In this document: positions 17,265-40,654 of the stretch, in pieces
Numbering within the stretch: position 1 is the stretch's first letter
Layout: each line of letters begins with the position of its first letter
Assembly: GCA_038531165.1 (NCBI GenBank)
Contig: JBCBBZ010000011.1
Coordinates: 1,028 to 65,027, forward strand
Direction: 5' to 3'
Origin: Pseudomonadota bacterium
GTDB lineage: Bacteria; Pseudomonadota; Alphaproteobacteria; Caulobacterales; Hyphomonadaceae
DNA length: 64,000 nucleotides
Position numbers and translations under genes: made by a program
The notes under the pieces: generated by a model
The model's database searches: none
What the model was told of the DNA's origin: nothing
What the model saw: the letters and a program-made list of their open reading frames with translations, nothing else

Positions 17265-18422
17265 ATGTCAATGCGCTTCTTTTTGCTGGCCATCCTGACG
17301 CAGCTGGCTCTTAGTGGAGCCATCGGAGTCGAGGCCGAGGCACCCGGCTTCGGTTTGGCAGAACCCTTCCCAAGCGATGAATACGAGGTTGAGGTGATCG
17401 CTCAAGGGTTGGACACGCCCTGGGACATCACTTGGCTGCCAAATGGAGACACGCTGATCACCGAACGTGACGGCGCTTTACGATTGATGCGCGGCGGTGA
17501 ACTCTTGGCCACCCCAATTGATGGCTTACCCAGTGTTTATGCGAGCAGTCAGGCCGGGCTTTTCGAAATCGCGCCGCATCCACGGTTTGAAGATAATGGG
17601 TGGATCTATTTCTCATATGCGCATGGCACGAAAAGCAAAAATACGCTTCGGCTCGCACGCGCGCAATATGTGCCAACGGCGGCCGGTGCGCGCCTCGAAA
17701 ACCTGTCCGTTCTGTTTGAAGCGAATGCCTATCGAAATAGTCCGGCGCATTATGGGGGGCGGTTTGTCTTTTTAGCAGATGAAACCCTGCTGCTGACATC
17801 AGGTGAAGGATATGCCTTCCGTCATGAGGCCCAAAAACTCGACAGCCATTTCGGCAAAACGCTGCGACTGACCGATACGGGCAAACCGGTACCCGATAGC
17901 CCCTTTGTGGACACTGCAGGCGCGTTGCCCGAGATATGGTCTTATGGTCATCGCAACCATCAAGGAATTGCCGTTGCATCTGATGGGATTGTTTACTCAA
18001 ATGAGCACGGCGCGCGCGGCGGTGACGAGATCAATGTGATTGCCCCTGGCGTGAACTTTGGGTGGCCCCTTGTGACCTGGGGCGTGGATTATTCTGGGGC
18101 GCAAATTAGCCCCTACTCTGAAACCGACGGGACTGTTCAACCGATCCTTTATTGGACCCCGTCAATCGCCCCAAGCGCCCTGATGTATTATGATGGCACC
18201 GTCTTCCCGGAATGGCGCGGCTTGCTGTTCTCATCAGGACTCGCCACACGCGAAATTCGCGTCATTGACCCAGCCGCGCCAGACGCAAAACAGTTTTCGT
18301 TGCTGACCGAGCTTGATGTTCGCATCCGAGATGTTGCGATGGGGCCGGATGGCTACATCTACGCTCTAACGGAGGGGCCCGGCGGCGGCGAAGTGTTGAA
18401 ACTGAGGCCGGGCGCCGAGTGA
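17265..18422 (+). CDS. PQQ-dependent soluble sugar (aldose/sorbosone) dehydrogenase family
   Basis: Signal peptide. Motifs LDTPWDITWLPNGDTLITERDG, YGHRNHQG, GGDEINVI...GVNFGWP are typical of the YliI/sGDH beta-propeller family. Confidence 0.8.
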   Translation: MSMRFFLLAILTQLALSGAIGVEAEAPGFGLAEPFPSDEYEVEVIAQGLDTPWDITWLPNGDTLITERDGALRLMRGGELLATPIDGLPSVYASSQAGLFEIAPHPRFEDNGWIYFSYAHGTKSKNTLRLARAQYVPTAAGARLENLSVLFEANAYRNSPAHYGGRFVFLADETLLLTSGEGYAFRHEAQKLDSHFGKTLRLTDTGKPVPDSPFVDTAGALPEIWSYGHRNHQGIAVASDGIVYSNEHGARGGDEINVIAPGVNFGWPLVTWGVDYSGAQISPYSETDGTVQPILYWTPSIAPSALMYYDGTVFPEWRGLLFSSGLATREIRVIDPAAPDAKQFSLLTELDVRIRDVAMGPDGYIYALTEGPGGGEVLKLRPGAE

Positions 18423-18503
18423 TTACCGCCTGGGCGGATAGGGGCTCAATAGGAAAGCTTCAATGCAAGCTCTCACTGCACGGTCTTATCCTTGACCAAT
18501 GCA

Positions 18504-18520
18504 TTAATGTGTCACATTAT
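18504..18520. promoter_or_regulatory. Motif-A palindrome TTAATGTGTCACATTAT
   Basis: TAATGTG-T-CACATTA is a perfect 7-1-7. About 80 bp upstream of the NMO start. Confidence 0.6.
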
Positions 18521-18596
18521 TTTGAAGGTTTGAGAGCGTCTGTCGATGCGACCCAAACCAAGAGACGAAACATCAGATAGAGCAAGAGCGCGACAC

Positions 18597-19571
18597 ATGC
18601 GAACCAAACTCACCGAACTCCTCGGAATCAAGGCGCCGATCATTTGCGGAGGTATGATGCGTGTCGGGACCGCCGACTTGGCGGCGGCTGTCTCGAATGC
18701 AGGTGGTCTTGGTGTTATGACCGCTCTTACTCAAAAGACCGCGGACGGTCTCGAGACTGAAATCGCGCGTTGCCAATCGATGACGGACAAACCCTTTGGC
18801 GTAAACCTGACCGTCGGGGTCGTCTCGACAGCGATTGACTATGATGAATATGTCGATGTCATCATCAAAAGCGGCGTCAAAATTGTCGAGACTGCAGGGC
18901 GCAGCCCAGCGCCCTTTATGGAGCGTTTCAAAGCTGCTGGCATAAAAGTGATCCATAAATGCGTCGCGGTTCGCCATGCTCTGTCGGCTGAGAAACTGGG
19001 CGTCGATGTCGTCAGCATAGACGGGTTTGAATGCGCAGGACATCCAGGCGACAAGGACATTGGTGGCCTTGTACTGTTTCCTGCTGCAGCACGTGTGCTT
19101 GATATCCCGGTCGTCGCGTCTGGGGGAATTGCCGACGGCAAGGGCTTGGCCGCCGCTTTGGCGCTGGGATGCGATGGCGTGAACATGGGCACACGCTTTC
19201 TGGCCACCCAGGAAGCGCCTATCCACGATGGCATCAAGGACAAGATCGTCGCGATGGATGAAAACCAGACGCAAGTCATCTTTCGCACATTCAACAATAC
19301 AGTGCGCGTCTTCAGAAACTCGGTTTCGGAGAAAGTCGCAGCAGTGGAAGCGGCGGGCGGCACGTATAACGACATTCGCGAGCTTGTGTCTGGCGCCAAT
19401 CAGGAAATCGCCTGGCAAACCGGAGATATTGAAGCCGGGATGGTCAGTGCCGGACTATCCGGGGCGTTGGTCGAACAGGTCTTGACCTGTGAGGAACTGA
19501 TCGACTCGATTGTTGCCGAAGCAAAATCAATTATCACCGATCGCCTGACCGGAATGTTTGCGGAGGCTTAG
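18597..19571 (+). CDS. Nitronate monooxygenase (NMO/2-nitropropane dioxygenase, FabK-like TIM barrel)
   Basis: MRTKLTELLGIKAPIICGGM...GGLGVM...ASGGIADGKGLAAALALGCDGVNMGTRF. Start taken at the internal ATG 18597. Confidence 0.8.
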   Translation: MRTKLTELLGIKAPIICGGMMRVGTADLAAAVSNAGGLGVMTALTQKTADGLETEIARCQSMTDKPFGVNLTVGVVSTAIDYDEYVDVIIKSGVKIVETAGRSPAPFMERFKAAGIKVIHKCVAVRHALSAEKLGVDVVSIDGFECAGHPGDKDIGGLVLFPAAARVLDIPVVASGGIADGKGLAAALALGCDGVNMGTRFLATQEAPIHDGIKDKIVAMDENQTQVIFRTFNNTVRVFRNSVSEKVAAVEAAGGTYNDIRELVSGANQEIAWQTGDIEAGMVSAGLSGALVEQVLTCEELIDSIVAEAKSIITDRLTGMFAEA

Positions 19572-19606
19572 ACCTGTAACTCATCCAGTCGTGCGTGTTG
19601 GTGTCT

Positions 19607-20800
19607 TTAGAGGCCGAGCACGGTTTTCGCTATGATATTTCTTTGCACTTCGCTGGTTCCGCCGGCGACAGTTGCTGCTCTTTGATCGAAGTAGCGCGGC
19701 GTCGCTAGCAGCCAATGCTCCGGACCAATCATCTCTTCATTATTCCCAGGCCGCAGAGCTTCACGCTGACGGACCAAAGCGTAGGGCCCTGCAGCTTCAA
19801 CAAAAAGCGCGTCTATTTCCTGCAACAGTTCGCGCGTCATCACCCGGGTGAAAGAAGACAAAACGCCTGGCGACTCGCCTTGCCCCAAAGCGTGGCTAAT
19901 GCGCTGCTCGGTGGCATCGGCAGCCATCATTGCGATTTCATTCGCGGCAAAGCGCTCGCGAAAACCGGGATCATCGAACTGATTGACGACGCCTTTCGAC
20001 GTGTCGTCATTTATCGCACCAGAAATAAGTCCAAGATTGCGGCGCAGCGTTGGCGTGATACTTGAGCCACCGCGTTCAAACTCGAGAAGATATTTCGCCA
20101 CGCGCCAACCGGCATTTTCGTCACCGACGCGATTGGATTGAGGGACGCGAACCTCGTCCAAGTAAACGTGATTTTGTTCGTGAACGCCATTCAGATTCAA
20201 AATTGGTTCGACACTGATTCCAGGACTGGTCATGTCGATCAGCAGGAACGTAATACCCTGTTGGGGCCGCCCCTCTGTGGACGTGCGCACCAAACAAAAC
20301 ATGTGAGTCGCATCCTGCGCATTCGACGTCCAAATCTTCGCGCCAGTGACGATATAGTCTTCGCCATCTTTGATCGCTACAGTTCTAAGAGACGCCAAAT
20401 CCGATCCAGACCCTGGCTCAGAAAAGCCCTGGCACCACACATGCTCTGCTGAGAGAATACGAGGAAGGTAGAAGTCTTTCTGTGCTTTTGATCCATATCC
20501 GATCAAGCACGGTCCGCACATGTTTAGGCTCTGCTGATGCTCACCGGGCGCGTTGGCCAGAAGCGATTCTTCGCGGAAGATCTCCTTCTGTTTAGGATCC
20601 CACCCCGTGCCTCCGTATTCTTCAGGCCAAGCCGGCGCGCCCCAACCATGGGCATGACGGACTCTTTGCCATTCCAGTGCTTGTTCCATATGAGGGAACG
20701 CATATGTCTGCAGCCGTCCTGCTGCACGCATGGCGTCGGTCAAATGCGCGTTCAGGAAAGCTTTAACCTCTGCCCGAAACTCACAATAATTTATTTCCAT
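19607..20800 (-). CDS. Acyl-CoA dehydrogenase
   Basis: ACAD pattern including the C-terminal GGTSEVQRNIIAKTVLGL. Start at MEINYCEF (ATG 20800), 25 bp after the ligase stop. Confidence 0.8.
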   Translation of the reverse strand: MEINYCEFRAEVKAFLNAHLTDAMRAAGRLQTYAFPHMEQALEWQRVRHAHGWGAPAWPEEYGGTGWDPKQKEIFREESLLANAPGEHQQSLNMCGPCLIGYGSKAQKDFYLPRILSAEHVWCQGFSEPGSGSDLASLRTVAIKDGEDYIVTGAKIWTSNAQDATHMFCLVRTSTEGRPQQGITFLLIDMTSPGISVEPILNLNGVHEQNHVYLDEVRVPQSNRVGDENAGWRVAKYLLEFERGGSSITPTLRRNLGLISGAINDDTSKGVVNQFDDPGFRERFAANEIAMMAADATEQRISHALGQGESPGVLSSFTRVMTRELLQEIDALFVEAAGPYALVRQREALRPGNNEEMIGPEHWLLATPRYFDQRAATVAGGTSEVQRNIIAKTVLGL

Positions 20801-20825
20801 CGTCAGCTTCCTTCGACATGGTCTT

Positions 20826-22394
20826 CTATGAGATGGACCGTTCCTGATCCTGCCAATACGGCGCTCTGAGGTCACGCTTCAACACTTTCATTGCCCCAGA
20901 AAGCGGAAGCGGCTCGTCTCGAAACGCGATCGACTTTGGCACTTTGTACCCCGCAACTGAGGCGCGCGCATGATCCATCAGGTCTTCATCCGAAACGCTC
21001 GCGCCATCAATGGGCACGACTATCGCGTGAACCGCTTCCCCCCAGACATCGTCCGGAATGCCGATGACCGCGACCTGGCGCACTGCGGGATGGCTCGCGA
21101 TCGCATTTTCGACTTCGGTGGAATATACATTCTCGCCGCCCGTCACGATCATATCTTTGACGCGGTCGACGAGGAACAAGTATCCGTTTTCGTCCAGATA
21201 TCCGGCGTCACCGGTATGGTACCAGCCGTCGCGGAAAACCGCTTCGGTGGCCTCTCGCTTGTTCCAATACTCGGTCATAAAATTCCCGCCCCGCGCGCAG
21301 ACCTCGCCGATATTACCGGTCGCAACTTCTTGCCCGTCTTTATCGCGAATGGAGAGCTCAACGCCGATGACGGGTCGCCCAACCGAGCGTAAATAGGCCC
21401 CGCCCTCACGATGGTCTTCGGGTGAAAGACTGGTAAGGCTCGCCGAGCTCTCGGTCATTCCGTACCCTTGAAACAGCTCAAGCTCTGGAGACGCTGCCAG
21501 CAGTTTGCTGAGCAAGGCTCCAGGCATCGGAGAGGCGCCATATGTCATTTGCTCGAGAGACTTCAATCGCTGGGGTGAGAAGTCAGGATGCGCCATCATC
21601 ATCCCGATCATCGTTGGAACCATTGTGGTCGATGTCACCTGATTGCGTTCAATTTCATTCATAACCAACTGAGGTTCGAAGCCAGGAATGATAACGGTTG
21701 TTCCGCCAACGGCATATGTCGAAAGCAGCCCCCCGGTTGAAGCAACGTGAAACATTGGCGTTTGGATGAGGCTCACAGTCGAGTCATTCATTTTTGGGCG
21801 CGCCAGACGTCCATGATATTGATTGAGCATTTTCGCGCGCTGATTGAGAACCACGCCTTTGGGAAGTCCGGTTGTGCCGCCCGTATACATCAAGACGACG
21901 GGGTCTTCTTCTTCAGGTTCGCGCGGCAGGACCGGAGAAGCCGCTTCAATCATGTCCTCATAATGAAAATCCGCGGGATCACCGCCTTCTCCAATTAAAA
22001 TAGATTTGCGAATGGGGAAGCTGTTACTCTCGCTTAGAGCCAAGGCCAAAAGTGGCGCGAAATGCTTGTCGACGAAAACAATTTCAGCGCCGGAATCCTG
22101 AATGATATAATTCAGTTCTTTCGGGCTCAGTCTCAAATTGAGGGGATTGATGATCCCACCGCCGAGAAATGCTGCATGAAAAAGCTCGAGGTATTCATGT
22201 GAGTTTCGCGCGAGGACTGCGAAACGATCGCCTTTGGACACCCCGCACTGATGCTCGAGCGCATGGATCAAGCGATAGACGCGATCCGCGTGTTGTTCGA
22301 ATGTTGCCTCATAAGCCCCATCAATGACGGCGCGTTTCGTTTTGTACCGCTGTAGTGCGGGAATAAAATGGCGGTGATAAATGAGCTCTTTCAT
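20826..22394 (-). CDS. Acyl-CoA synthetase / AMP-dependent ligase
   Basis: AMP-binding signature YTGGTTGLPKGV; GWYHTGDAGYLDENGYLFLVDRVKDMI. Confidence 0.85.
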   Translation of the reverse strand: MKELIYHRHFIPALQRYKTKRAVIDGAYEATFEQHADRVYRLIHALEHQCGVSKGDRFAVLARNSHEYLELFHAAFLGGGIINPLNLRLSPKELNYIIQDSGAEIVFVDKHFAPLLALALSESNSFPIRKSILIGEGGDPADFHYEDMIEAASPVLPREPEEEDPVVLMYTGGTTGLPKGVVLNQRAKMLNQYHGRLARPKMNDSTVSLIQTPMFHVASTGGLLSTYAVGGTTVIIPGFEPQLVMNEIERNQVTSTTMVPTMIGMMMAHPDFSPQRLKSLEQMTYGASPMPGALLSKLLAASPELELFQGYGMTESSASLTSLSPEDHREGGAYLRSVGRPVIGVELSIRDKDGQEVATGNIGEVCARGGNFMTEYWNKREATEAVFRDGWYHTGDAGYLDENGYLFLVDRVKDMIVTGGENVYSTEVENAIASHPAVRQVAVIGIPDDVWGEAVHAIVVPIDGASVSDEDLMDHARASVAGYKVPKSIAFRDEPLPLSGAMKVLKRDLRAPYWQDQERSIS

Positions 22395-22494
22395 TCTGTG
22401 AACTCCATCAAAAAGCGATCAAAACAAAGGGCTTGAGGGTTCAGGCGGCTATTGCTCTTCCCTCGCTTGAAATATTTCGCCCTTGCGACTCATC

Positions 22495-22511
22495 TTAATG
22501 TATTACATTAA
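22495..22511. promoter_or_regulatory. Motif-A palindrome TTAATGTATTACATTAA
   Basis: Perfect 8-1-8 palindrome in the divergent ligase/SDR gap. Confidence 0.6.
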
Positions 22512-22665
22512 TACGTGTAACGAAGTCAATTTGAAAGCGTGTGACGTTCTAACAAAACTAAGCTCAAACTTGGCGGCACTGTTCAATCAAGCCTAACCTT
22601 CTGGCGACTGGATAAATGCCTGAATTTATACCCGTTCCGAAGAAACTGAATAAGGAAATATATCA

Positions 22666-23391
22666 ATGTCTGGATGCACAATTGTACTTGGAGCAGGCGC
22701 CTCTCAGGGGGTCGGCGGAGCGCTATCACGGCGGTTTGCCCGCGAAGGGCAGCACGTGATAATTGGCGGCCGCACGACCGAGCGCATTGAGGCGCTCGCG
22801 CAAGAGGTGAGCGATGCGGGCGGGTCAGCCGAGGGCATTTCCGTAGACGTCACAGCCGAAGCCGACCTTGATGCCTTATTTGAACATGCTGCGCAGAAAG
22901 GCCCTATCAACGCGGTCTTATACAATGTCGGAAATAATGCGATTATTCCATTTGAAAAACTGGAACCGAAAACCGTCGAGAGGTTTTGGCGGGTCGGCTG
23001 TTTCGGTGCCTTTCTTACCTCGAAGCTCGCCGTGCCGATTATGAAGGCGCAAGGCCATGGAAGCCTGTTTTTCACGGGGGCTTCTGGATCGATGCGCGGC
23101 AAGCCAAACTTCGCCCATTTTGCATCCATGAAAGCAGGACTTCGCATGCTCGCTCAGTCACTCGCTCGAGAATTTGGACCCGATGGCATTCATGTCGCCC
23201 ATTTTGTCATTGATGGCGTAATCGATGGTGAAATGGTTCGCAGCCGTTTCGGCGAATATGTCGAAAAGCTTGGCGAAGATGGCTGCCTGTCACCCGATGC
23301 CATAGCGGAGGCTTATTGGCACGTGCATTCGCAGCCAAAATCAGCCTGGACTCATGAAATGGATCTTCGCCCATTCAAGGAGCGCTGGTAG
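22666..23391 (+). CDS. SDR-family oxidoreductase
   Basis: Rossmann motif LGAGASQGVGGAL. GASGSMRG...FASMKAGLRMLAQSLAREFGPDGIHVAHFVIDG. The usual catalytic Tyr position reads Phe/His (HFASMK). Confidence 0.75.
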   Translation: MSGCTIVLGAGASQGVGGALSRRFAREGQHVIIGGRTTERIEALAQEVSDAGGSAEGISVDVTAEADLDALFEHAAQKGPINAVLYNVGNNAIIPFEKLEPKTVERFWRVGCFGAFLTSKLAVPIMKAQGHGSLFFTGASGSMRGKPNFAHFASMKAGLRMLAQSLAREFGPDGIHVAHFVIDGVIDGEMVRSRFGEYVEKLGEDGCLSPDAIAEAYWHVHSQPKSAWTHEMDLRPFKERW

Positions 23392-23441
23392 CAAAGCAGA
23401 GTCCGGTCGGCTTGGCCGAAAAAGTGATCATTCGATAACTT

Positions 23442-24554
23442 TTAGTTTTCTACATTCGGAGCTGCACCTTCCGGCGCATCCATCAGCGAACCCTCAACGC
23501 GCTCCGAGACCGCCGCCGTAGGTTCAGCCTCAAGCTCTTCGACCACACGCATGATTGCAGCTGCAATCTCGACGGGCACTTCTTCCTGCAAGAAATGCCC
23601 GGCCTGCGTTTCTGTAACGCGCGCATTTGGGAAGAAGTTCTTCATTGCAGGCAATGCTCTGGCGAAGATCGGATCGCTCATGCCCCAAACGATCTCGGCA
23701 GGCACATCAAGCGACGTGACATATGCCTGAATATTGCGAAGCTCTGCCGAACTTGGATGATCGGGACCGTCCGGCACCATTCGCATCAGCGCCAGTGGGG
23801 CCTTCTTGTTTCCGCTTTCGATGACGGGGCGACCGTAAAGGTCAGCGACCTCTTTTGGAAAAGAGGCTGGATCACCCTGGGTCTCATGTAGACGATCAAA
23901 AATGGAGACGAGGTTCTCCATCAATAATTCGCCGACGACCGGAGTTTTGGCGAGATCATGCGCCCGCGACAGGCTCATTTTTTCGGTAGGTGCATTGAAA
24001 CCCGTGTTCAGCACAACTGCGCCGCTTAGAAGCTCGGGCGATTGCATAAGAGCCCCTACACCAACTGCGCCGCCCCAATCCTGCCCGACATATACGAGGT
24101 CCTCAAGCTGCAACTGCCGCAAGGCTGAATTCATCCAACGCATATGATTTTCGAGCGTGTGCTCGCTCGCAGAAATTTTGGTCGAAAAGCCGAGCCCAAC
24201 CATTGTCGGCATGATCACCCGCACTCGATCTATCGGCAGTTCAGCAACCACTTTGCGATACAGAAGCCCAGAGGTCGGATTTCCGTGCTGCGCATAAACT
24301 GGATACCCCTCACCGACTTCGAGAACATGAATTTTGATCCCTGGTTCAACCTCAACGAAGTAGCTTTTATAATCCTCTGAGAGGACCTCAGCCGCGTAGT
24401 CCGGCAATGCAAAGGCCTCAAACGTCCCGGCATCCAGGGTGACCGTGCCCTCGCCTTTCGGGACGATCTGCTTGCCATCGCGCGTTATAGTGAAAACCAG
24501 GATCACACCCGCGAGGATGATAACGCCCAAAACAATCAGTGACATTTTCAACAT
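23442..24554 (-). CDS. Alpha/beta hydrolase, haloalkane-dehalogenase (HLD-I)-like, N-terminally membrane anchored
   Basis: N-terminal TM MLKMSLIVLGVIILAGVILVF. HGNPTSGLLYRK; GQDWGG (Asp nucleophile + Trp, not GxSxG); C-terminal AGHFLQEEVP. Confidence 0.65.
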   Translation of the reverse strand: MLKMSLIVLGVIILAGVILVFTITRDGKQIVPKGEGTVTLDAGTFEAFALPDYAAEVLSEDYKSYFVEVEPGIKIHVLEVGEGYPVYAQHGNPTSGLLYRKVVAELPIDRVRVIMPTMVGLGFSTKISASEHTLENHMRWMNSALRQLQLEDLVYVGQDWGGAVGVGALMQSPELLSGAVVLNTGFNAPTEKMSLSRAHDLAKTPVVGELLMENLVSIFDRLHETQGDPASFPKEVADLYGRPVIESGNKKAPLALMRMVPDGPDHPSSAELRNIQAYVTSLDVPAEIVWGMSDPIFARALPAMKNFFPNARVTETQAGHFLQEEVPVEIAAAIMRVVEELEAEPTAAVSERVEGSLMDAPEGAAPNVEN

Positions 24555-24569
24555 GGTCTCTTCGCCTAC

Positions 24570-25670: not shown

Positions 25671-25714
25671 GGTTTTTATTCCTTCCTGCGAGAAAACCGC
25701 TAACCCAATTTCAC

Positions 25715-25731
25715 TTAATGTAATGCATTAC
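25715..25731. promoter_or_regulatory. Motif-A palindrome TTAATGTAATGCATTAC
   Basis: 45 bp upstream of the HLD-like gene start at 25670. Confidence 0.55.
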
Positions 25732-25800
25732 TTCTGGCAAGAAAAGCCTTGTAGATTCGAAAGAGGACTCAATGGAAGATTTAGCGACCGCATCGCCATT

Positions 25801-26412: not shown

Positions 26413-26479
26413 GATGTTCGAGAATCCTTTTCAGCAAATCCGATGTTGAAATTTTGCGAAGTTGCGTTGCCACCTGTGT

Positions 26480-27172: not shown

Positions 27173-27330
27173 GAGAGAACGCTTTCCTGGTTGATCTCTT
27201 CGTTCATATGTTGCGCACCTGAACGATGTCGGAGCGTCATTATCAGCATCTGGCGCGGAGACATGCAAACGGGCAGACACCGATGAGCGGCCGAACTCGG
27301 AGGCCTCTTATCGGTCAATACTCCAAGGTT

Positions 27331-31884: not shown

Positions 31885-31974
31885 TTTTAATTCAATCTAT
31901 TCGTTGACGAACAACGGGAGGAAACGCGTGTTTAAGTCTTTTTTGTATGTTTTAGGATAATAATGAGAGTCAAT

Positions 31975-31991
31975 TTAATGTCTAGCATTAT
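31975..31991. promoter_or_regulatory. Motif-A palindrome TTAATGTCTAGCATTAT
   Basis: About 90 bp upstream of the sulfatase start at 31884. Confidence 0.55.
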
Positions 31992-32013
31992 TTTGCCGCG
32001 TACCAACAGCGCG

Positions 32014-33483: not shown

Positions 33484-33699
33484 TTGAGTTATGTCGTTAT
33501 GTGTTTGCACAAGATGAAATCCGATTGGTAACGGGTTGGGTTTCGCGGAAGGGGTTTTACCGGCGCACCCGATCGACTCTCGATGTTGCGCATTTGGTTT
33601 CGGTATGATGCCGTTCGCGTCCCTAATTGACGCCGGCATGCGCTGGAGTTGCGGACACCGCTTGTTTTTTTTATCGTTTTGTTAGACACTCCAGGGTAA

Positions 33700-33716
33700 T
33701 TAATTATACTGATTAA
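33700..33716. promoter_or_regulatory. Motif-A variant TTAATTATACTGATTAA
   Basis: Overlaps the next site. In the divergent MFS/TetR gap. Confidence 0.4.
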
Positions 33717-33729
33717 TATACTGCATTAG
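33713..33729. promoter_or_regulatory. Motif-A variant TTAATATACTGCATTAG
   Basis: 11 bp upstream of the TetR ATG. This placement is consistent with autoregulation. Confidence 0.5.
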
Positions 33730-33739
33730 GAAGATAACG

Positions 33740-34363
33740 ATGCGAAAGTCAACTCGCCAAGATACCAGGTCCGCCTTGATGCAGTCGGCGGAGCGCCTTT
33801 TTTCTGAGAAAGGCATTGGCACTGTATCGGTAAAAGAAATCACGTCGGCGGCGGGCGCGCGCAATCTGAGCGCCGTGCACTACCATTTTGGATCGATCGA
33901 AGCTCTGATAAAAGAGCTTTTCATCGAACGATATCAGCGCATTGAGCATGATCGTTTGGTACGCCTTGCGAAAGTAGATGCGTCTTCGTCGGATAATCGT
34001 TTATTCGACCTACTCTATGCCGCAATAGCCCCCTTCCTGGAGACATGCTTGGACGAGAAAGGACGACAATATGTTCATTTCGTTATTCAGCTCACGCATG
34101 ATCCACGATTTGATGTCGCTGAGATTGTTGCAGAGGCAGAGAGTGTGAGTGTCCTGACCCTCCGAGGCCTTCTTGTGGATTGTTTGAAACATTTGCCGGC
34201 AGAAATACTTGCGGCGCGGTTAAGACAAGGCTTTAAAATCAACATGCTTCAGGCGGCCGACTATGCCCGGCTTGTAGAGGATGGATCAGCTCCCCCTATT
34301 GAAGATGCTATTCGCGAAGCTGCACATACTCTGGCCGGATACTTGAACGCTCCAGCAAGCTAG
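33740..34363 (+). CDS. TetR-family transcriptional regulator
   Basis: N-terminal HTH ALMQSAERLFSEKGIGTVSVKEITSAAGARNLSAVHYHFGSIEAL. Divergent from the MFS gene. Confidence 0.85.
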   Translation: MRKSTRQDTRSALMQSAERLFSEKGIGTVSVKEITSAAGARNLSAVHYHFGSIEALIKELFIERYQRIEHDRLVRLAKVDASSSDNRLFDLLYAAIAPFLETCLDEKGRQYVHFVIQLTHDPRFDVAEIVAEAESVSVLTLRGLLVDCLKHLPAEILAARLRQGFKINMLQAADYARLVEDGSAPPIEDAIREAAHTLAGYLNAPAS

Positions 34364-34417
34364 CTTCCATACTCGAGAGGGCTTGCTGGATCTCAGGAAA
34401 GCTGATACTCAGCAGAA

Positions 34418-34434
34418 TTAATGCAGTGCATTAT
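34418..34434. promoter_or_regulatory. Motif-A palindrome TTAATGCAGTGCATTAT
   Basis: TAATGCA-G-TGCATTA is a perfect 7-1-7. About 105 bp upstream of the BVMO ATG. Confidence 0.6.
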
Positions 34435-34538
34435 TCTTGCGGGTGGTACGAACGTACTGGAAGCAACGATCCATCGGGGTCGTCGACCAGATCAGAAACT
34501 CCTCCCGCACGCGTTATGTTGTTCAGGAGATTCCGCCC

Positions 34539-36437
34539 ATGTCGTCGTCGCAATTGCTCGATAAAGCCGCTATCAAAGACAAATATGCCAAGGAGCGGGC
34601 CAAGAGACTGCGGCCGGAAGGCAATGCGCAATATCAGCGTCTCGAGGGGAAGTTTGAGTCTTATGCAGGCGACCCTCATACGCCGCTCCGCGAGAGAGAT
34701 CCGGTTAGAGATCATGTAACGTTTGCCTTCATCGGTGCGGGGCTTTCCGGACTGGTGGTTGGCGCCCGACTGAAAGAAGCCGGTATCAAAGATGTCCGGC
34801 TTATAGAGAAAGGCGGCGATGTTGGCGGCACGTGGTATTGGAACAGATATCCAGGCGTACGATGCGATACGGCGGCGATGATCTACCTGCCTTTGCTCGA
34901 AGAGACGGGCTATATACCCAGCGAAAAATATGTCCGCGGGCCCGAAATTCTCGAGCATTGCGAGCGGATCGCCAAGCATTACGATCTACGCGAAAAAGCC
35001 CTCTTTCATACTGAAGTCCATTCGCTCGAATGGCAAGAAGATCAACAAGTTTGGCGAATTAAGACATCGCGTGGAGACGATTTCACCGCAAAATATCTCG
35101 GCATGGGTACGGGTCCATTACATGTTGCGAAGCTTCCGGGCATTCCCGGAATCGAAAGTTTTACGGGTAAATCCTTCCACACAAGCCGCTGGGATTACGA
35201 ATATACGGGCGGCGATGCCTATGGTGCGCCCATGGACAAGCTGACCGACAAGCGTGTGGCTGTAATCGGCACTGGCGCGACTGGCGTCCAGTGCATCCCG
35301 CAGCTCGCCAAAACCGCCAAGGAACTCTTTGTCTTTCAGCGCACGCCCTCTTCGGTCGACGAGCGCCGAAATCACGCCATTGATGACAAATGGATCAAGG
35401 CGAATGCCAAACCCGGCTGGCAAAAACGTTGGATGGATAATTTTGTTGAGAACATGGGCGGCGGGATCCCATCCGAAGACCTGGTCGATGATGGTTGGAC
35501 GGAAATCTCACGCAGCATTCGCGAGAAGATGTTGAATGGCACACCGCCCTGGCTTGCCCGCCTTGTCTTGCGCACACGCAAGGTCTTCGGTGCATCGCCG
35601 TCGCAGAGAAGTACAGACCGCGTGCGCGCCGCGTTCGAAGAAGCAGACCTCGAGAAAATGGAGCAGATCCGCGCCCGCGTCGATGCGGAGGTGAAGGATG
35701 ATGAGACGGCGCAAAACCTGAAAGCTTGGTACTCGCAGCTCTGCAAGCGGCCCTGTTTTAGCGATGAATATCTGCCGGCGTTTAATTCCCCAAACACAAC
35801 GCTCGTGGATACTGATGGCAATGGTGTCGAGCGGATCGACGAGACGGGCCTCGTCGCCAACGGTACGCATTATGAGGTGGACTGCATCGTCTATGCGTCA
35901 GGCTTCGAGTATGGCGCAAATTTTCAGCTCAAATCCGGGTTTGACCTCACGGGACGAAATGGCCAGCGCCTTTCAGAGCATTGGGCAAACGGGCTGAGAA
36001 CGCTACACGGGCTTCATATGCACGGCTTCCCGAATGCGTTCATGATCCAAATGAACCAAGGGGCGAATATGGCTTCGAATATTCCGCATAACATTGTCGA
36101 TCATGCGGCCACTGTTGCTCAAGTTGTCTCTCACGCTGAAGCGAATGGATTTGCATCTGTTGAACCCACGGCAGAGGCTGAGGCGGCATGGGTCGAGCTT
36201 ATCCTGACCAACCAAGGCTCCCTGATCGGATCGACCGAATGCACGCCGGGATTTTGGAACAATGAGGGACAGGGCTGGAGCCAAGAGTTTCGACAAGCCC
36301 AAGGTCACCCCGGCGGCGCGCAAGGTTACTTCAAACACATTCAAGCTTGGCGCGAGGCCGGTGATTTTGAAGGCTTAGTCTTTAGTGTAGCGCCAACGAA
36401 CGACGCTGTGCCGGCACATGCCGAACTGGCCAGCTAA
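34539..36437 (+). CDS. Type I Baeyer-Villiger (flavin-containing) monooxygenase
   Basis: FIGAGLSG FAD site; GGTWYWNRYPGVRCD; BVMO fingerprint FTGKSFHTSRWD; second Rossmann VAVIGTGATG. Start at ATG 34539 with an AGGAG RBS. Confidence 0.85.
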   Translation: MSSSQLLDKAAIKDKYAKERAKRLRPEGNAQYQRLEGKFESYAGDPHTPLRERDPVRDHVTFAFIGAGLSGLVVGARLKEAGIKDVRLIEKGGDVGGTWYWNRYPGVRCDTAAMIYLPLLEETGYIPSEKYVRGPEILEHCERIAKHYDLREKALFHTEVHSLEWQEDQQVWRIKTSRGDDFTAKYLGMGTGPLHVAKLPGIPGIESFTGKSFHTSRWDYEYTGGDAYGAPMDKLTDKRVAVIGTGATGVQCIPQLAKTAKELFVFQRTPSSVDERRNHAIDDKWIKANAKPGWQKRWMDNFVENMGGGIPSEDLVDDGWTEISRSIREKMLNGTPPWLARLVLRTRKVFGASPSQRSTDRVRAAFEEADLEKMEQIRARVDAEVKDDETAQNLKAWYSQLCKRPCFSDEYLPAFNSPNTTLVDTDGNGVERIDETGLVANGTHYEVDCIVYASGFEYGANFQLKSGFDLTGRNGQRLSEHWANGLRTLHGLHMHGFPNAFMIQMNQGANMASNIPHNIVDHAATVAQVVSHAEANGFASVEPTAEAEAAWVELILTNQGSLIGSTECTPGFWNNEGQGWSQEFRQAQGHPGGAQGYFKHIQAWREAGDFEGLVFSVAPTNDAVPAHAELAS

Positions 36438-36455
36438 GGTTTAAAGGTAGCTCCT

Positions 36456-37103
36456 ATGTCTAATGTAATCGACGTCTTCTGGTCCTTCCGAAGCCCCTAT
36501 TCTCGGCTCATCACAGCCGATCTTTTGGATCTCCAAAACGACTACAATGTCGATATACAGGTCAGACCGGTGCTGCCTTTGGCCATTCGATTTCCGGAAT
36601 CACTCTTCAATGTCGATGACCGACGTGCGCCGAGATACATCGCGATGGACAGCCAGAGACGCGGTGAAATGCTTGGCAGACCGATTATCTGGCCCAATCC
36701 TGACCCGGTCGTTCAAGACTTCAAGACGATGACGGTTTCATCTGAACAGCCCTATATCTATCGATTGACCAAATTAGGCGTGGAAGCATCGCGGCGCGGT
36801 AAGGGACTGGAATTCATTCACCACGTCTCAGACCTGATCTTTGGCGGGACGCCTGAATGGGACCGAGGCGAAAAGTTAAAAGACGCCGCGGCAAAAGCCG
36901 GCATAGACCTCGCGGAGCTCGATCAAGCGATTGAATCTGGCGATCATATGAGTGAGATTGAAAGCAATCACGAGGCCCTCGACGCCTCGGGGCATTGGGG
37001 CGTTCCAACTTTGGTCTTTCGAGATGAACCCTTCTTTGGTCAAGACCGGGTTGATACCCTGCGTTGGCGTTTGGACCAGAGCGGATTGTCCAAACAAACA
37101 TGA
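36456..37103 (+). CDS. DsbA-family 2-hydroxychromene-2-carboxylate isomerase-like protein
   Basis: VIDVFWSFRSPYSRL N-terminus (SPYS in place of CxxC) and C-terminal GHWGVPTLVF, as in the HCCA isomerase family. Confidence 0.7.
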   Translation: MSNVIDVFWSFRSPYSRLITADLLDLQNDYNVDIQVRPVLPLAIRFPESLFNVDDRRAPRYIAMDSQRRGEMLGRPIIWPNPDPVVQDFKTMTVSSEQPYIYRLTKLGVEASRRGKGLEFIHHVSDLIFGGTPEWDRGEKLKDAAAKAGIDLAELDQAIESGDHMSEIESNHEALDASGHWGVPTLVFRDEPFFGQDRVDTLRWRLDQSGLSKQT

Positions 37104-37112
37104 GAGGCTGAC

Positions 37113-37526
37113 GTGCTGCATACTGATTCAAAACAGGCAGACAGACTGCCTTTATGGCTGACCATTATCATTATTCTGGAAACGCTGCCCATGTTTATCG
37201 GGCCGGTGATTGCACTCACCCGACCAGCGATGATGGGGGGTCCGGAGGCTGACTCGATCAATCAAGCAGCTTTCATTTACGCCGCTCGGAATGTTGCCGT
37301 CGGGATCGCTTTAATCATCGCCTTTGTGCTCAAAAACAAGCACATGTTGTTCGCCTTGATCCTGGTTAGGCTTTTAACCGATATCGTGGATCTGCCCACG
37401 CTTTTGTACTTTGGCCTGGCTTCTAATCAGATCCTGGTGATCTCAATCTTTGTCTTCTTGTATTACATTCCGGCAGTCATCGCGCTGAGATTTCTTTGGG
37501 AATCTTCGCGAAGAGCCGCGCCGTAA
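37113..37526 (+). CDS. Small integral membrane protein (DUF4345-like?)
   Basis: Four predicted helices. GTG start 10 bp after the upstream stop. Confidence 0.4.
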   Translation: MLHTDSKQADRLPLWLTIIIILETLPMFIGPVIALTRPAMMGGPEADSINQAAFIYAARNVAVGIALIIAFVLKNKHMLFALILVRLLTDIVDLPTLLYFGLASNQILVISIFVFLYYIPAVIALRFLWESSRRAAP

Positions 37527-37586
37527 CCGACAACACCTGAAATAATCAAACACCATAAAAACGATAATAATCGACCGGGAGAAAAA

Positions 37587-38378
37587 ATGTCAGACCCCCT
37601 AGTGCTTGAGCGCCGCGGCCCCGTCGCTATCATCTCGATCAATGACGCGCCCTACAATCGCATGACCCTAGAATTTATGGACCAATTGGAAAGCACGGTT
37701 GATGAACTGGGCAATGATACCTCAGTGCGCGCCATTGTCTTCACATCAGAGGGCGACCAGAATTTCTCTGTCGGAATGAACCTCAAACAAATGCGCGATG
37801 GCATCGCCGCTAAAGGCAGCATTGATGGCGTATTCGACCAACGCTGGCGCGTCTTGGATAAGATCGAACGCATGGGGAAACCTTCAATCGTCACCCTATT
37901 CGGGTATTGCCTCGGGGGCGGGTTAGAGCTTCCCTTGGCCTGCCACTTTCGCTTCGCCGCCGAAGAAGGCGCCCAAATCGGGCTCCCGGAAATGGATCTC
38001 GGCACAGTGCCCGCATGGGGCGGTTTAGCGCGCCTACCGAGATGCGTCGGACGAGATCATGCACTTGATATGATTTTGCGCGGCAAAAAGATCTCCGGTC
38101 CCGAAGCGCTTCATATTGGCCTGGTCAGTGAGGTCTGGCCCCTCTCCGAACTGAAAGGACGAGCGATCGCCCTTGCCGAAGAATTGGCATCCATGCCGCG
38201 TTTGGCCGTCAAATCGGTCCTCGATACGGTGATTGGATTTGAAGCAAAAAGTCTTTTCGAATCTTTGGCGGATGAACGCAGAGCCGTGCACTCCAATGCC
38301 CGAACTGCCGATGCGAAAGAAGGCATGATGGCGTTTATAGAAAAGCGGGACCCGGTCTTCAATCAAAGCGATGATTAG
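37587..38378 (+). CDS. Enoyl-CoA hydratase/isomerase (crotonase family)
   Basis: VAIISINDAPYNRM...LFGYCLGGGLELPLACHFRFA...EGMMAFIEKRDPVF. Confidence 0.8.
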   Translation: MSDPLVLERRGPVAIISINDAPYNRMTLEFMDQLESTVDELGNDTSVRAIVFTSEGDQNFSVGMNLKQMRDGIAAKGSIDGVFDQRWRVLDKIERMGKPSIVTLFGYCLGGGLELPLACHFRFAAEEGAQIGLPEMDLGTVPAWGGLARLPRCVGRDHALDMILRGKKISGPEALHIGLVSEVWPLSELKGRAIALAEELASMPRLAVKSVLDTVIGFEAKSLFESLADERRAVHSNARTADAKEGMMAFIEKRDPVFNQSDD

Positions 38379-38467
38379 CAGGCGCGCTTAAGTCCGACTG
38401 AAAGATGAGAGCCGTTATCGCGACCCATGAGCCTTCATACAACCCCCTATATTACTCGAGCAATTCG

Positions 38468-40249
38468 ATGATCCGCTACATAATGAGCCTCATAATATGT
38501 TTGGTCTTTCTGCCCCTATATTCGGCGGCGCAAATTGAGCGCCCAAACTTTGTCGTGATTGTTGTTGATGACGCCGCGCTGATGGATTTCGGCGTTTATG
38601 GCGGCGAAGCCTCGACCCCTCATATTGACGATTTGGCCGGAAGCGGGATGCTTTTTAAGCAACACCGGGCCACACCGTTTTGCGCCCCGAGCCGCGCTAT
38701 GCTCATGACCGGCTTAGACAATCATCTCGCTGGCTTTGGAACCATTCCAGAAGTCTTGCCCCCGGAGCATCGCGGCCAACCTGGTTACATGATGGCGCTT
38801 GAACCTGGCGTCGAAACCATTGCGACAAAACTTAAGCGAGCGGGCTACCGTACCTATACGACTGGCAAATGGCATCTTGGGCATGGACCTGGCGAATTGC
38901 CGGACTCTCATGGTTTTGATCGCTCTTTCGTCCTCGATGCCTCGGGCGCGGACAGCTGGGAAGATAAGCCTTACTTGCCCTATTACAAAGAAGCGCCCTG
39001 GTTTGAGGATGGCGAACCCGCCGACCTGCCGGCGGAGTTCTACTCCTCTACCTTCATTGCCGACACGATGCAGGCTTATCTCGAAGCAGATCAAGACAGC
39101 CCTGAACCGTTTTTCGCCTATCTGTCCTTTTACTCGAACCACATTCCAGTCCAGGCGCCGCGCGAATACACTGAAAAATATATCGACACCTATGAGAGCG
39201 GTTGGAATGACCTGCGCCAAAATCGATGGCAACGCGCGCAAGCGCTTGGCCTCGTGCGAGACGGGGCACCGCGTGCGGAGCAACCCGAAACGATCCCGCG
39301 TTGGGAGGCGCTGACGCAGGCCGAACAACAGATCGCCGCGAAGAGCTTAGCCGTTCATGCCGGAGCCTTGGAAGCCATGGATGCTGAGCTTGGTGAGTTC
39401 ATCGCCTATCTCAAAAGTACAGGACAATTCGAAAACACTGTCTTTGTTGTTTCATCTGACAATGGACCAGAAGCTGGCGACCCGTGGGGTACGCAGCTTC
39501 AATTCTGGTTCGATCTTATGGGATATCATCGCGACTATGAGACGCTCGGGGAAAAAGGGAGCTATGTCGCAATTGGATCAGGCGGCGCGAGCGCAGCCGC
39601 AGGCCCTAATCACTTGTTTAAATTTCACGCAGGCGATGGCGGCCTTAGGGTCCCGCTAATCCTTTCAGGGCCCGGCATACCGGTTGCTGAAAACGTCAAT
39701 GAGTTCACTTTGATGGCTGATATTGCACCGACTTTGTTAGACCTCGCCAATGTAACCGACACACCGCCCGCCGGCACCAAACCGTTTACAGGTCGCTCCC
39801 TCGCGCCGCTTCTCAAGGGTGCCGCCAATTATGTCTACGGCCCCGAGGATGCTGTTGGCTTCACCACGTCTGGCCAAGCAGCCCTGATCAAAGGAAACTA
39901 CAAGCTTGTCCGCAATTTGCCCCCGCATGGCGATAGTGTCTGGCGCTTGTTCGATCTCGCAGAAGACCCCGGCGAAACCATGGATCTGAGCGATGTTTTG
40001 CCTGATTTGAAAGCGGAACTGATGCAAGACTACCGAGCTTATGCGGACCGGGTTGGGGTGCTGGAGCTTCCTGAAGGGTATCAGGTGGAACGACAAATCG
40101 GTCGCAACGTGATGGCCAAACTTTGGCAGTATTACTGGCCGTGGATTGTCGCAGCGGGCTTCACGATCCTCGCGCTTTTCGGTTTGCTCCTTTGGTCTCT
40201 TGCCAAGCTTACGCTCGTCGTTCGACGGCGTATGGCCGCAAACGGATAA
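38468..40249 (+). CDS. Arylsulfatase-family sulfatase (Cys-type), with C-terminal TM helix
   Basis: Signal MIRYIMSLIICLVFLPLYSAAQ. NFVVIVVDDAA; CAPSRAMLMTGL. C-terminal YYWPWIVAAGFTILALFGLLLWSLAKL hydrophobic segment. Confidence 0.85.
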   Translation: MIRYIMSLIICLVFLPLYSAAQIERPNFVVIVVDDAALMDFGVYGGEASTPHIDDLAGSGMLFKQHRATPFCAPSRAMLMTGLDNHLAGFGTIPEVLPPEHRGQPGYMMALEPGVETIATKLKRAGYRTYTTGKWHLGHGPGELPDSHGFDRSFVLDASGADSWEDKPYLPYYKEAPWFEDGEPADLPAEFYSSTFIADTMQAYLEADQDSPEPFFAYLSFYSNHIPVQAPREYTEKYIDTYESGWNDLRQNRWQRAQALGLVRDGAPRAEQPETIPRWEALTQAEQQIAAKSLAVHAGALEAMDAELGEFIAYLKSTGQFENTVFVVSSDNGPEAGDPWGTQLQFWFDLMGYHRDYETLGEKGSYVAIGSGGASAAAGPNHLFKFHAGDGGLRVPLILSGPGIPVAENVNEFTLMADIAPTLLDLANVTDTPPAGTKPFTGRSLAPLLKGAANYVYGPEDAVGFTTSGQAALIKGNYKLVRNLPPHGDSVWRLFDLAEDPGETMDLSDVLPDLKAELMQDYRAYADRVGVLELPEGYQVERQIGRNVMAKLWQYYWPWIVAAGFTILALFGLLLWSLAKLTLVVRRRMAANG

Positions 40250-40261
40250 TACTTTAGTGAA

Positions 40262-40654
40262 TTGGAGAAAAGAATGATTTGGGTTGCACGTATCACAGGA
40301 ACACTGGTCTTCCTGTTTTCAACGCTTTTGGGCGCAGTGGCTTTATTGAACCCGCACCAAGCCGCAGAATCCCTCGGCCTCGCGCCCTTGAGCGATATGG
40401 GGCGAAACTCTGTCCGCGCAGATATTGTCGGCTTTGCCTGGACGGCTGCGCTCCTTAGCGCGGGCGGACTGTTCGCTGGTCGCGGGAAATGGTTTTATGG
40501 CGCGGCTATAGTGTTTGGGATTGCCGTATTCGGGCGCACCTTCGACGTGGTGATCGCCGGCGGCGCCGCTGATGCTCCCCGCGCAATTATCGTGGAACTC
40601 ATCGTCGTGGTGTTTGCCTTGATTGCTGCACGATGGTTGCCGTCTTCCCGCTAG
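40262..40654 (+). CDS. Small integral membrane protein (DUF4345-like?)
   Basis: Four hydrophobic helices. Last gene before IS6 copy 2. The likely real start is ATG 40274. Confidence 0.4.
   Translation: MEKRMIWVARITGTLVFLFSTLLGAVALLNPHQAAESLGLAPLSDMGRNSVRADIVGFAWTAALLSAGGLFAGRGKWFYGAAIVFGIAVFGRTFDVVIAGGAADAPRAIIVELIVVVFALIAARWLPSSR

Follow-up and report, generated by a model that had tools for sequence, protein, structure and literature searches.

A probable TetR-type regulon conserved among Alphaproteobacteria joins sulfatases, haloalkane dehalogenase-like hydrolases and a Baeyer-Villiger monooxygenase and may serve the use of an amphiphilic sulfate ester

The DNA analyzed here, referred to as the window, is a stretch of 64,000 nucleotides from contig JBCBBZ010000011.1 (NCBI GenBank assembly GCA_038531165.1) of a bacterium of the family Hyphomonadaceae, within the Alphaproteobacteria. 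Between positions 10164 and 40654 (coordinates are those of the window, and + and − denote the strand), it holds about 25 genes in nine transcription units, among them two sulfatases, two hydrolases of the haloalkane dehalogenase (HLD) type, a Baeyer-Villiger monooxygenase (BVMO), uptake and efflux systems, CoA-dependent enzymes, and a TetR-family repressor. Each of the nine units has a site of the palindromic form TAATG-N5-CATTA. An earlier interpretation made without database searches (the sequence-only reading) had proposed that the genes of 17265–40654 share this operator and encode a pathway for sulfated and/or halogenated long-chain aliphatic compounds. Its gene list is borne out by the listing of open reading frames (ORFs) and by Pfam and NCBIfam scans, and the catalytic signatures are intact. 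The region 17265–40654 is indeed operator-linked, but the left border was misplaced, as the regulon reaches 10164 by way of a site at 16554.

Allowing up to one mismatch, the window contains 12 matches to TAATG-N5-CATTA against 1.22 expected, and none of 100 shuffled sequences reached 12. Nine of the twelve are intergenic (eight exact, one with one mismatch), fall within 16554–34433 and stand 11–105 bp upstream of start codons. From left to right, these are TAATGAATTACATTA (16554–16568), 53 bp upstream of the start of an EF-hand protein gene; TAATGCCCAACATTA (17231–17245), within the 52-bp divergent region between a 158-residue ORF and the gene for a glucose/sorbosone-type dehydrogenase (GSDH); TAATGTGTCACATTA (18505–18519), which has TTGACC 7 nt upstream and a right half resembling a −10 box; TAATGTATTACATTA (22496–22510), between the genes for an acyl-CoA ligase and a short-chain dehydrogenase/reductase (SDR); TAATGTAATGCATTA (25716–25730), 45 bp upstream of the hydrolase gene HLD1; TAATGCTATGCATTA (30068–30082), 49 bp upstream of the gene for a TonB-dependent receptor; TAATGTCTAGCATTA (31976–31990), 91 bp upstream of the gene for sulfatase 1; TAATATACTGCATTA (33714–33728), the site with one mismatch, in the divergent region between the MFS symporter gene and tetR and 11 bp from the tetR start; and TAATGCAGTGCATTA (34419–34433), upstream of the BVMO operon. 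At several sites a TTG-type −35 element lies just upstream and the right half-site occupies the expected −10 position, a layout that would be expected of repression by promoter occlusion.

The presumed binder of these sites is the TetR-family repressor encoded at 33740–34363 (+), which has a TetR_N helix-turn-helix domain (34.2 bits) and a TetR_C_30 domain (27.5 bits). Palindromic sites stand before its own gene and before eight other promoters, and the operator 11 bp ahead of tetR suggests autoregulation. The best NCBIfam match of the repressor is PsrA, with a score of 48.8 bits that falls far short of the cutoff of 300.

To place the locus among related genomes, one genome per species was scanned for relatives of the BVMO, which yielded 48 loci, all of them labelled alphaproteobacterial. 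The closest loci come from Henriciella-like metagenome-assembled genomes (MAGs), with BVMO identities of 93–97%, and relatives at 64–79% identity occur in Parvularcula, Hyphobacterium, Caulobacteraceae, a Paracoccaceae MAG and many Sphingomonadales, the carriers among the latter including Erythrobacter, Sphingomonas, Novosphingobium, Porphyrobacter, Qipengyuania, Sandarakinorhabdus and Polymorphobacter. These relationships place the source organism near Henriciella, and a gammaproteobacterial origin was rejected. A fragmentary locus labelled gammaproteobacterial has the same gene order of TetR, BVMO, DUF4267 protein, enoyl-CoA hydratase (ECH), DSBA-fold protein, HLD-like hydrolase and MFS symporter. 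The window and the related loci together (853 kb) contain 138 exact operator sites, where 0.05 would be expected from mononucleotide shuffles. A plasmid origin was rejected, as plasmids yielded no orthologue of more than 60% identity.

Co-occurrence was counted in the 30 loci of at least 16 kb, whose neighborhoods were compared by tblastn with the window proteins. Beside the BVMO, these loci carry TetR (28 of 30, in company with the operator), sulfatase 1 (26; any sulfatase, 27), an HLD-like hydrolase of any kind (24), the TonB receptor and the GPH symporter (18 each), sulfatase 2 (16) and the DSBA-fold protein (15). The genes for alcohol oxidation and β-oxidation, which the sequence-only reading had included in its pathway, fared differently: ECH occurs in 4 loci, acyl-CoA dehydrogenase (ACAD) in 2, the ligase in 1, and the SDR and GSDH in none, while the glutathione S-transferases (GSTs) occur in 3 and an NMO-type oxidoreductase in 2. 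The ligase, SDR, GST and RND efflux genes do appear in a small number of additional marine lineages, represented in part by shorter contigs (loci L007, L033 and L038).

A cross-genome regulon was also delineated from a clustering of those ORFs in related loci that immediately follow an operator site. The families so found are TetR and BVMO (37 loci each), sulfatases (29), MFS symporters (25), TonB receptors (23), HLD-like hydrolases and a periplasmic EF-hand protein (21 each), a membrane-anchored metallo-β-lactamase (MBL)-fold protein (15), homologues of a 130-residue ORF of the window (12), a second short EF-hand protein (9) and NMO-type proteins (3). Several further recurrent ORF clusters of no known family appear by their coordinates to be alternative frames or opposite strands of known genes, and were treated as spurious. 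The conserved core thus consists of TetR, the BVMO, a membrane-anchored sulfatase, an AtsA-like sulfatase, anchored HLD-like hydrolases, the TonB receptor, the GPH symporter, a protein resembling kappa-class GSTs (the DSBA-fold protein) and the EF-hand protein, whereas the SDR and the β-oxidation genes are lineage-specific accessories.

The operator shared across the units is therefore confirmed by its enrichment, by the promoter-only placement of the nine intergenic sites and by its conservation in related loci. Because the operator and the core genes alike are retained in different alphaproteobacterial orders, the genes of 10164–40654 constitute a genuine functional unit that has been conserved, rather than neighbors by chance. 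We consider it probable, at roughly 60%, that they form a single TetR-repressed, substrate-inducible regulon for catabolism and tolerance and, jointly with this, that the substrate is an amphiphilic organic sulfate ester.

The sulfate ester is the best-supported chemical feature of this substrate. Sulfatase 1 (30196–31884, −; PF00884, 193.8 bits) has an N-terminal membrane anchor, and sulfatase 2 (38405–40249, +; PF00884, 199.4 bits) is AtsA-like with a cleavable signal peptide. The two proteins, predicted to be Cys-type enzymes in the sequence-only reading, indeed represent two subfamilies of the formylglycine type, and both combine the sulfatase domain with the C-x-P-x-R signature in the form CAPSR. 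This signature is kept in 33 of 33 orthologues of sulfatase 1, 31 of which also have a hydrophobic N-terminus, and in 19 of 19 orthologues of sulfatase 2, where signal peptides are seen as well. The longest ORF of sulfatase 2 probably overcalls the start (38405–38470), since orthologues have a stop upstream of a start reading MIRYIMS. The MBL-fold protein, absent from the window, is found behind the operator in 15 Sphingomonadales loci (6146–7291 of L019 and its equivalents); it is closest to the MBL-type arylsulfatase 8GYG, matches GntH and RNase Z models as well, and would be a third sulfatase class in the regulon. With two sulfatase subfamilies here and this MBL-type enzyme in Sphingomonadales, the proposal of a sulfated substrate is well supported.

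The nearest solved structures of sulfatase 1 are S1_19 and S1_16 carrageenan sulfatases (246–221 bits); human steryl sulfatase reaches 168 bits. Use of a sulfated sugar or glycoside, in which the sulfatases and the GPH symporter would process an oligosaccharide or glycoside and the GSDH would oxidize the freed aldose, could draw on this proximity to carrageenan and N-acetylgalactosamine sulfatases, on the match of the symporter to the GPH model and MelB, and on the aldose specificity of the GSDH family. However, neither the window regulon nor the recurrent members of the 48 loci include a glycoside hydrolase, a lyase or a SusD-like gene of the kind that marks a polysaccharide locus, the GSDH is absent from all related loci, the BVMO, the HLD-type hydrolases and the CoA enzymes would have no role in glycan use, and the PDB is biased towards carbohydrate sulfatases. 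We regard such a function as very unlikely. Sulfatase 2, for its part, matches the Pseudomonas aeruginosa arylsulfatase AtsA (1HDH) over its full length with 321 bits, a resemblance that raises the prospect of sulfur scavenging, in which sulfate esters would be hydrolyzed for their sulfate only, as at the Pseudomonas ats and sft loci. A precedent for a TonB receptor for sulfate esters is Pseudomonas putida SftP. Against scavenging, however, stands control by a TetR encoded within the cluster, with operators at genes of carbon catabolism (BVMO, ligase, ACAD, ECH and SDR), and the cluster lacks transporters for sulfate or sulfonates as well as regulators of the CysB or LysR type; this explanation seems highly improbable.

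The BVMO (34437–36437, +; Pfam NAD_binding_8, Pyr_redox_3 and FMO-like) is a type I enzyme with an N-terminal extension. Its orthologues align only from about residue 34 of the longest ORF, and the start is therefore probably Met35 (34539). In the alignment to 5MQ6 it shows FTGKSFHTSRWD and GGTWYWNRYPGVRCD, and both dinucleotide-binding motifs, for FAD and NADPH, are present as GAGLSG and GTGATG. Type I BVMOs are recognized by the fingerprint FxGxxxHxxxW[P/D] and by GGxWxxxxYPGxxxD (PMC6315744), both of which these sequences contain. The protein matches the NCBIfam model of PtlE with 659 bits over the full length, short of the equivalog cutoff of 1100, and is 46% identical to a Streptomyces PtlE. 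The closest solved structure is that of PockeMO (5MQ6; 432 bits), steroid, phenylacetone and cyclohexanone monooxygenases reaching about 190–250 bits. By these comparisons, the BVMO would belong to the PtlE clade but be a different enzyme. The substrates of PtlE and PockeMO are bulky cyclic or polycyclic ketones (PMC6315744). The apparent membership of the BVMO in this clade, with its N-terminal extension, disfavors a simple linear ketone without excluding one, and the long-chain aliphatic substrate of the sequence-only reading was not borne out.

These relationships bring forward the sulfate of an alicyclic compound (a steroid, a bile alcohol or a terpenoid, for example), in which the BVMO would lactonize a ring ketone, the side chain or the opened ring then being handled by the CoA enzymes. 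PockeMO converts steroids (PMC6315744), the anchored sulfatase 1 matches human steryl sulfatase, a core free of dehydrogenases fits a substrate that already bears a ketone, and the ligase, ECH and ACAD have sub-threshold matches to CasG, EchA19 and PimC, CoA enzymes that act on steroids or alicyclic compounds. On the other hand, every one of the steroid-related matches lies below its curated cutoff, no KstD, KshA, Hsa-type or other ring-degrading genes occur in the window or among the recurrent regulon members, and the HLD-type hydrolases would be left without a role. We therefore hold this alternative to be a tentative possibility.

Downstream of the BVMO gene follow genes for the DSBA-fold protein (36456–37103, +; PF01323), a DUF4267 membrane protein (37113–37526, +; Pfam), the ECH (37587–38378, +; Pfam), sulfatase 2 and, as the last gene of the operon, the membrane ORF of 130 residues (40262–40654, +), which has no family match. 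The DUF4267–ECH pair is kept in the marine lineages L001, L003, L005, L008, L031 and L033–L035. The most constant neighbor of the BVMO is the predicted cytoplasmic DSBA-fold protein, which is also the best conserved of the set (66–85% identity among 29 sampled homologues from several lineages). In it SPYS replaces CxxC; S10, S13, P14, Y15 and S16 are invariant, and CxxC is absent. A sequence search of the PDB gave no match. The structure model (pLDDT 91.5) has 2IMD, 1R4W and 1YZX as its top Foldseek matches (TM 0.69–0.72). The thioredoxin-like fold and the SPYS-type motif, whose serine is catalytic in kappa-class GSTs, identify the protein as resembling kappa-class GSTs and 2-hydroxychromene-2-carboxylate (HCCA) isomerases. 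A disulfide oxidoreductase was rejected on account of this fold and the missing CxxC.

The two hydrolases are paralogues, HLD1 (24570–25670, −) and HLD2 (23442–24554, −), both membrane-anchored and both with an aspartate nucleophile in a QDWGG motif. Among the 60 PDB matches listed, almost all are haloalkane dehalogenases. In 122 aligned sequences N92 (of an HGNP motif), D159, W160, D295 and H321 are invariant, and the β6 position holds an asparagine and not the glutamate of HLD-II. An Asp-His-Asp triad with an Asn-Trp pair defines HLD-III (PMC7182704), and this pentad is present in both window proteins. An N-terminal transmembrane segment occurs in 120 of 120 homologues, and the charge bias favors a periplasmic catalytic domain. 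An epoxide hydrolase is not favored, given the asparagine of HGNP, an only invariant cap tyrosine that belongs to an HLD-type YxxP motif, and the absence of a second cap tyrosine. The proposal of haloalkane dehalogenase-type hydrolases thus holds for the nucleophile and the pentad but not for the curated HLD cutoffs, which the proteins fail to reach. A halogenated substrate is plausible. The hydrolases would form a separate, membrane-anchored HLD-like subfamily and may not be dehalogenases. A strict linkage of HLD, sulfatase and BVMO was rejected, as HLD paralogues of 62% identity occur in unrelated contexts. At one such locus (L050, 5856–17647), an HLD-like paralogue of 62% identity lies beside genes for a GST, an SDR and a TonB receptor, without operator, BVMO or sulfatase, and a set of MBOAT, AMP-ligase, 80-residue ORF and sulfotransferase genes is nearby.

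In the version of the sequence-only reading, the substrate would be a long-chain aliphatic sulfate (such as a secondary alkyl sulfate, an alkanediol disulfate or a chlorosulfolipid) that is desulfated, dehalogenated, converted to a mid-chain ketone, split by way of the BVMO ester and β-oxidized. Two different sulfatases, two HLD-type hydrolases and GSTs agree with this, as do the membrane anchoring of the enzymes, the kinship of the symporter with a lysolipid transporter, a ligase that passes the long-chain-fatty-acid-CoA ligase model, an RND pump that fits a detergent-like inducer, and carriers that are apparently mostly aquatic bacteria. However, the PtlE/PockeMO clade is known for cyclic and polycyclic ketones (PMC6315744), the SDR, ligase, ACAD and ECH are not part of the core, and the regulon has no esterase. 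The type of the sulfatases is a further difficulty. The bacterial alkyl sulfatases known to us are of the metallo-β-lactamase or dioxygenase type, not of the formylglycine type. We regard this version as doubtful. An alkyl skeleton and an alicyclic one (an alicyclic, terpenoid or steroid ring) carry roughly equal weight. More specifically, natural halogenated sulfolipids (algal chlorosulfolipids or alkanediol disulfates, for instance) might be the substrate, in which case the regulon would be the first catabolic route for them and the anchored HLD-III-like enzymes would be the dehalogenases. We think this unlikely; if true, it would give the HLD family a physiological substrate and a natural role.

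Uptake is represented by the TonB-dependent receptor (27331–30018, −; Pfam Plug and barrel) and the MFS_2/GPH cation symporter (32014–33639, −; PF13347, 311 bits), whose identities, as given in the sequence-only reading, are upheld by Pfam. The structural relatives of the symporter in the PDB are generic (MelB, 77 bits; the lysolipid symporter MFSD2A, 65 bits). Downstream of the receptor gene lie GSTb (26480–27280, −) and then GSTa (25801–26412, −), both with GST_N/GST_C domains, and the order TonB receptor–GSTb–GSTa is the same in L001, L005 and L006. For GSTa, a PDB search gave generic relatives only.

To the left, the first gene behind the operator at 16554 encodes the periplasmic EF-hand Ca-binding protein (16087–16500, −; Pfam EF-hand families), a constant member of the regulon with a weak lanmodulin-like match (45 bits against a cutoff of 135), which may supply calcium to the sulfatases. 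Downstream of it lies the RND operon (10164–15978), comprising an outer-membrane factor (OMF; 14485–15978, −; Pfam OEP, and NCBIfam NodT-type OMF at 210.2 bits against a cutoff of 210.05), a membrane-fusion protein (MFP; 13286–14488, −; Pfam HlyD_3) and the RND permease (10164–13289, −; Pfam ACR_tran). Few lineages possess this operon; in L005, an operator is likewise followed by the genes for the EF-hand protein, OMF, MFP and RND permease, in that order. A hydrophobic ORF of 158 residues (16736–17212, −), without family match, diverges from the GSDH gene with which it shares the operator at 17231, and its membership in the regulon is weak because it has no homologue in related loci.

TetR together with an RND operon is a classic arrangement for a detoxification or efflux response, and GSTs and HLD-type enzymes are typical detoxifiers, so that the regulon might counter a toxic xenobiotic or natural product without using its carbon. 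However, the core includes dedicated uptake by the TonB receptor and the symporter, the RND operon is confined to few lineages, and the CoA ligase, ACAD and ECH point to assimilation. Defense as the sole function is therefore distinctly unlikely.

The remaining genes are oxidation and CoA genes of this lineage. The GSDH (17265–18422, +; PF07995, 368 bits) is a soluble pyrroloquinoline quinone (PQQ) enzyme with a signal peptide, lacks counterparts in related loci and is thus a lineage-specific accessory; a PQQ dehydrogenase is indeed present, as had been proposed, but of the aldose/sorbosone type and not a quinoprotein alcohol dehydrogenase. It is followed by an FMN-dependent NMO/FabK-like oxidoreductase (18546–19571, +; PF03060, 195.6 bits; FabK model 247.8, below the cutoff), whose gene also stands behind the operator in L029 and L038. 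The PimC-like ACAD (19607–20875, −; 294.7 bits to PimC, below the cutoff) forms an operon with the acyl-CoA ligase (20826–22394, −), which scores 489 bits to the NCBIfam model of long-chain-fatty-acid-CoA ligases and so exceeds its cutoff of 476. The SDR (22666–23391, +; PF00106, 114.8 bits) is a cytoplasmic accessory with a 69% orthologue in L007 only. The β-oxidation set is incomplete, a hydroxyacyl-CoA dehydrogenase and a thiolase not being present.

Taken together, the conserved core indicates that the substrate is an organic sulfate ester, amphiphilic and built on a hydrophobic skeleton, and we infer the following order of steps and chemistry for its use. The TonB receptor would pass the compound through the outer membrane. 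At the periplasmic face of the inner membrane, the anchored sulfatase and the soluble AtsA-like sulfatase would remove sulfate, perhaps helped by the EF-hand Ca-binding protein, and the two anchored hydrolases with the HLD-III-type pentad would exchange a halide, or some other good leaving group on an sp3 carbon, for a hydroxyl group. The product would be imported by the GPH symporter. In the cytoplasm, the BVMO would convert a ketone to an ester or lactone by inserting oxygen next to it; this ketone could be already present in the substrate, made by the SDR in this lineage, or provided by housekeeping enzymes. The kappa-GST/HCCA isomerase-like enzyme may catalyze a glutathione-dependent step next to that of the BVMO. 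In this lineage, the CoA ligase, ACAD, ECH and NMO-type reductase would lead the resulting acid towards β-oxidation, while the RND pump would limit the toxicity of a surfactant-like inducer. The predicted locations fit this order: anchors or signal peptides are predicted on the sulfatases, the hydrolases, the GSDH and the TonB receptor, and none on the BVMO, the SDR, the GSTs and the CoA enzymes. The membrane tethering of sulfatase 1, of both hydrolases and, elsewhere, of the MBL-fold protein argues for a substrate that partitions into membranes.

Several observations weigh against this interpretation. The conserved core, as seen in the 30 long loci, includes no dehydrogenase, which leaves the source of the BVMO's ketone unexplained; without the SDR, the sulfate–alcohol–ketone order of the sequence-only reading lacks a conserved dehydrogenase. 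BVMOs also oxidize heteroatoms, so that a ketone substrate is not guaranteed. The hydrolases score 135.3 and 126.2 bits against a cutoff of 265 (NF002043) and 107.5 against 241, below the curated HLD cutoffs, and their 62%-identity paralogues in unrelated contexts make their identity as dehalogenases uncertain. Among solved structures, sulfatase 1 sits closest to carbohydrate sulfatases, and none of the approximately 55 larger window ORFs scanned against Pfam is a sulfatase maturase (FGE/anSME). Finally, no GxSxG serine hydrolase that could act as esterase or lactonase is found among the regulon members in the window or in the 48 loci; this gap, already remarked upon in the sequence-only reading, thus extends to every lineage. 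The BVMO ester could open spontaneously or by the action of housekeeping enzymes. The MBL-fold protein of the Sphingomonadales, which is not in the window, was rejected as a lactonase, being closest to the MBL-type arylsulfatase 8GYG and RNase Z-like proteins. The only esterase-like gene nearby encodes a β-lactamase-fold serine hydrolase (44894–46219) and has no operator.

The surroundings of the regulon bear marks of rearrangement. IS6-family (DDE_Tnp_IS240) insertion sequences (ISs) at 6060–6870 and 40758–41568 have the same orientation and are 83% identical, and a third remnant lies at 44543–44888; at this identity, a recent IS6 composite transposon was rejected. Collinearity with L001 (89% nucleotide identity over 24430–40655) ends exactly at the start of the second IS, which makes the right border of the regulon a rearrangement point. 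Adjoining the first copy, genes for an N6/N4 DNA methylase, a DUF5681 protein and an Mrr-like nuclease (6978–9391) look like a small mobile or restriction-type island. Just past the second copy, 41950–46219 encodes a cupin, a 648-residue PigB-like FAD oxidoreductase and the serine hydrolase mentioned above. A separate set of the amine/polyamine-catabolic type, none of it with TAATG-N5-CATTA, occupies 46069–55058 and 61895–63981; it comprises a copper amine oxidase, a second TetR (TetR_C_31), a PhyH dioxygenase, an ECH, an HDAC-like amidohydrolase, a class III aminotransferase and an aldehyde dehydrogenase and, further right, a pair of GATase and glutamine synthetase-like genes.

The presence of two to three sulfatase classes, HLD-type hydrolases and a bulky-substrate BVMO under one operator in several alphaproteobacterial orders points to an unrecognized route by which aquatic bacteria turn over sulfated lipids or terpenoids. 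To our knowledge, the natural substrates of haloalkane dehalogenases are largely unknown, and the regulon offers a genomic handle on their natural role. TetR and its operator are, moreover, a ready biosensor for activity-guided identification of the substrate, and several cultured strains carry the cluster, among them Hyphobacterium vulgare KCTC 52487 (L029), Erythrobacter donghaensis (L019), Porphyrobacter sp. AAP60 (L021), Sandarakinorhabdus sp. AAP62 (L045) and Sphingomonas sp. BE123 (L015). No description of a cluster or pathway of this composition was found in the literature searched, in agreement with the sequence-only reading; TetR-controlled catabolic regulons are common, and it is the combination of these enzymes under one operator that appears undescribed.

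Individual parts of the regulon do have counterparts in known systems, no one of which unites them all. In the ketone pathways that employ a BVMO (MekAB and AcmAB of subterminal alkane/ketone oxidation and, for large-ring ketones, the cyclododecanone genes cddABCD and the cyclopentadecanone cpd cluster), this enzyme likewise makes an ester or lactone, from which an acid is later derived and activated with CoA. However, those clusters pair the BVMO with a serine esterase or lactonase and an alcohol dehydrogenase, whereas the regulon described here has no esterase, and the constant partners of its BVMO are the kappa-GST-like protein, the sulfatases, the HLD-type hydrolases and the uptake systems. 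The N-terminal extension typical of the CPDMO/PtlE/PockeMO group is shared by the window BVMO, whose closest characterized relatives by sequence are the pentalenolactone BVMOs PtlE and PntE and fungal PockeMO; unlike the former, it stands in a catabolic context and not in a terpenoid biosynthetic cluster. The lin pathway for γ-hexachlorocyclohexane in Sphingobium, also an alphaproteobacterial system, similarly combines an extracytoplasmic HLD (the periplasmic LinB), an SDR that oxidizes the resulting alcohol (LinC) and a GST (LinD). LinB, however, is a soluble HLD-II, whereas the window hydrolases have an HLD-III-like pentad and a transmembrane anchor, and the lin pathway is without sulfatases, BVMO and a common TetR operator. 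The Pseudomonas atsA and sftR-sftP loci likewise join an AtsA-like formylglycine sulfatase to a TonB receptor for organosulfates, but they are regulated by sulfate starvation and serve sulfur supply, whereas the window regulon is controlled by TetR and tied to carbon-catabolic enzymes. The closest regulatory parallels are the KstR/KstR2, FadR-type and PsrA regulons of lipid or steroid catabolism, in which one TetR acts through a palindrome before many catabolic units, including its own gene; from these, the present regulon differs in its operator, TAATG-N5-CATTA, and in its gene content.

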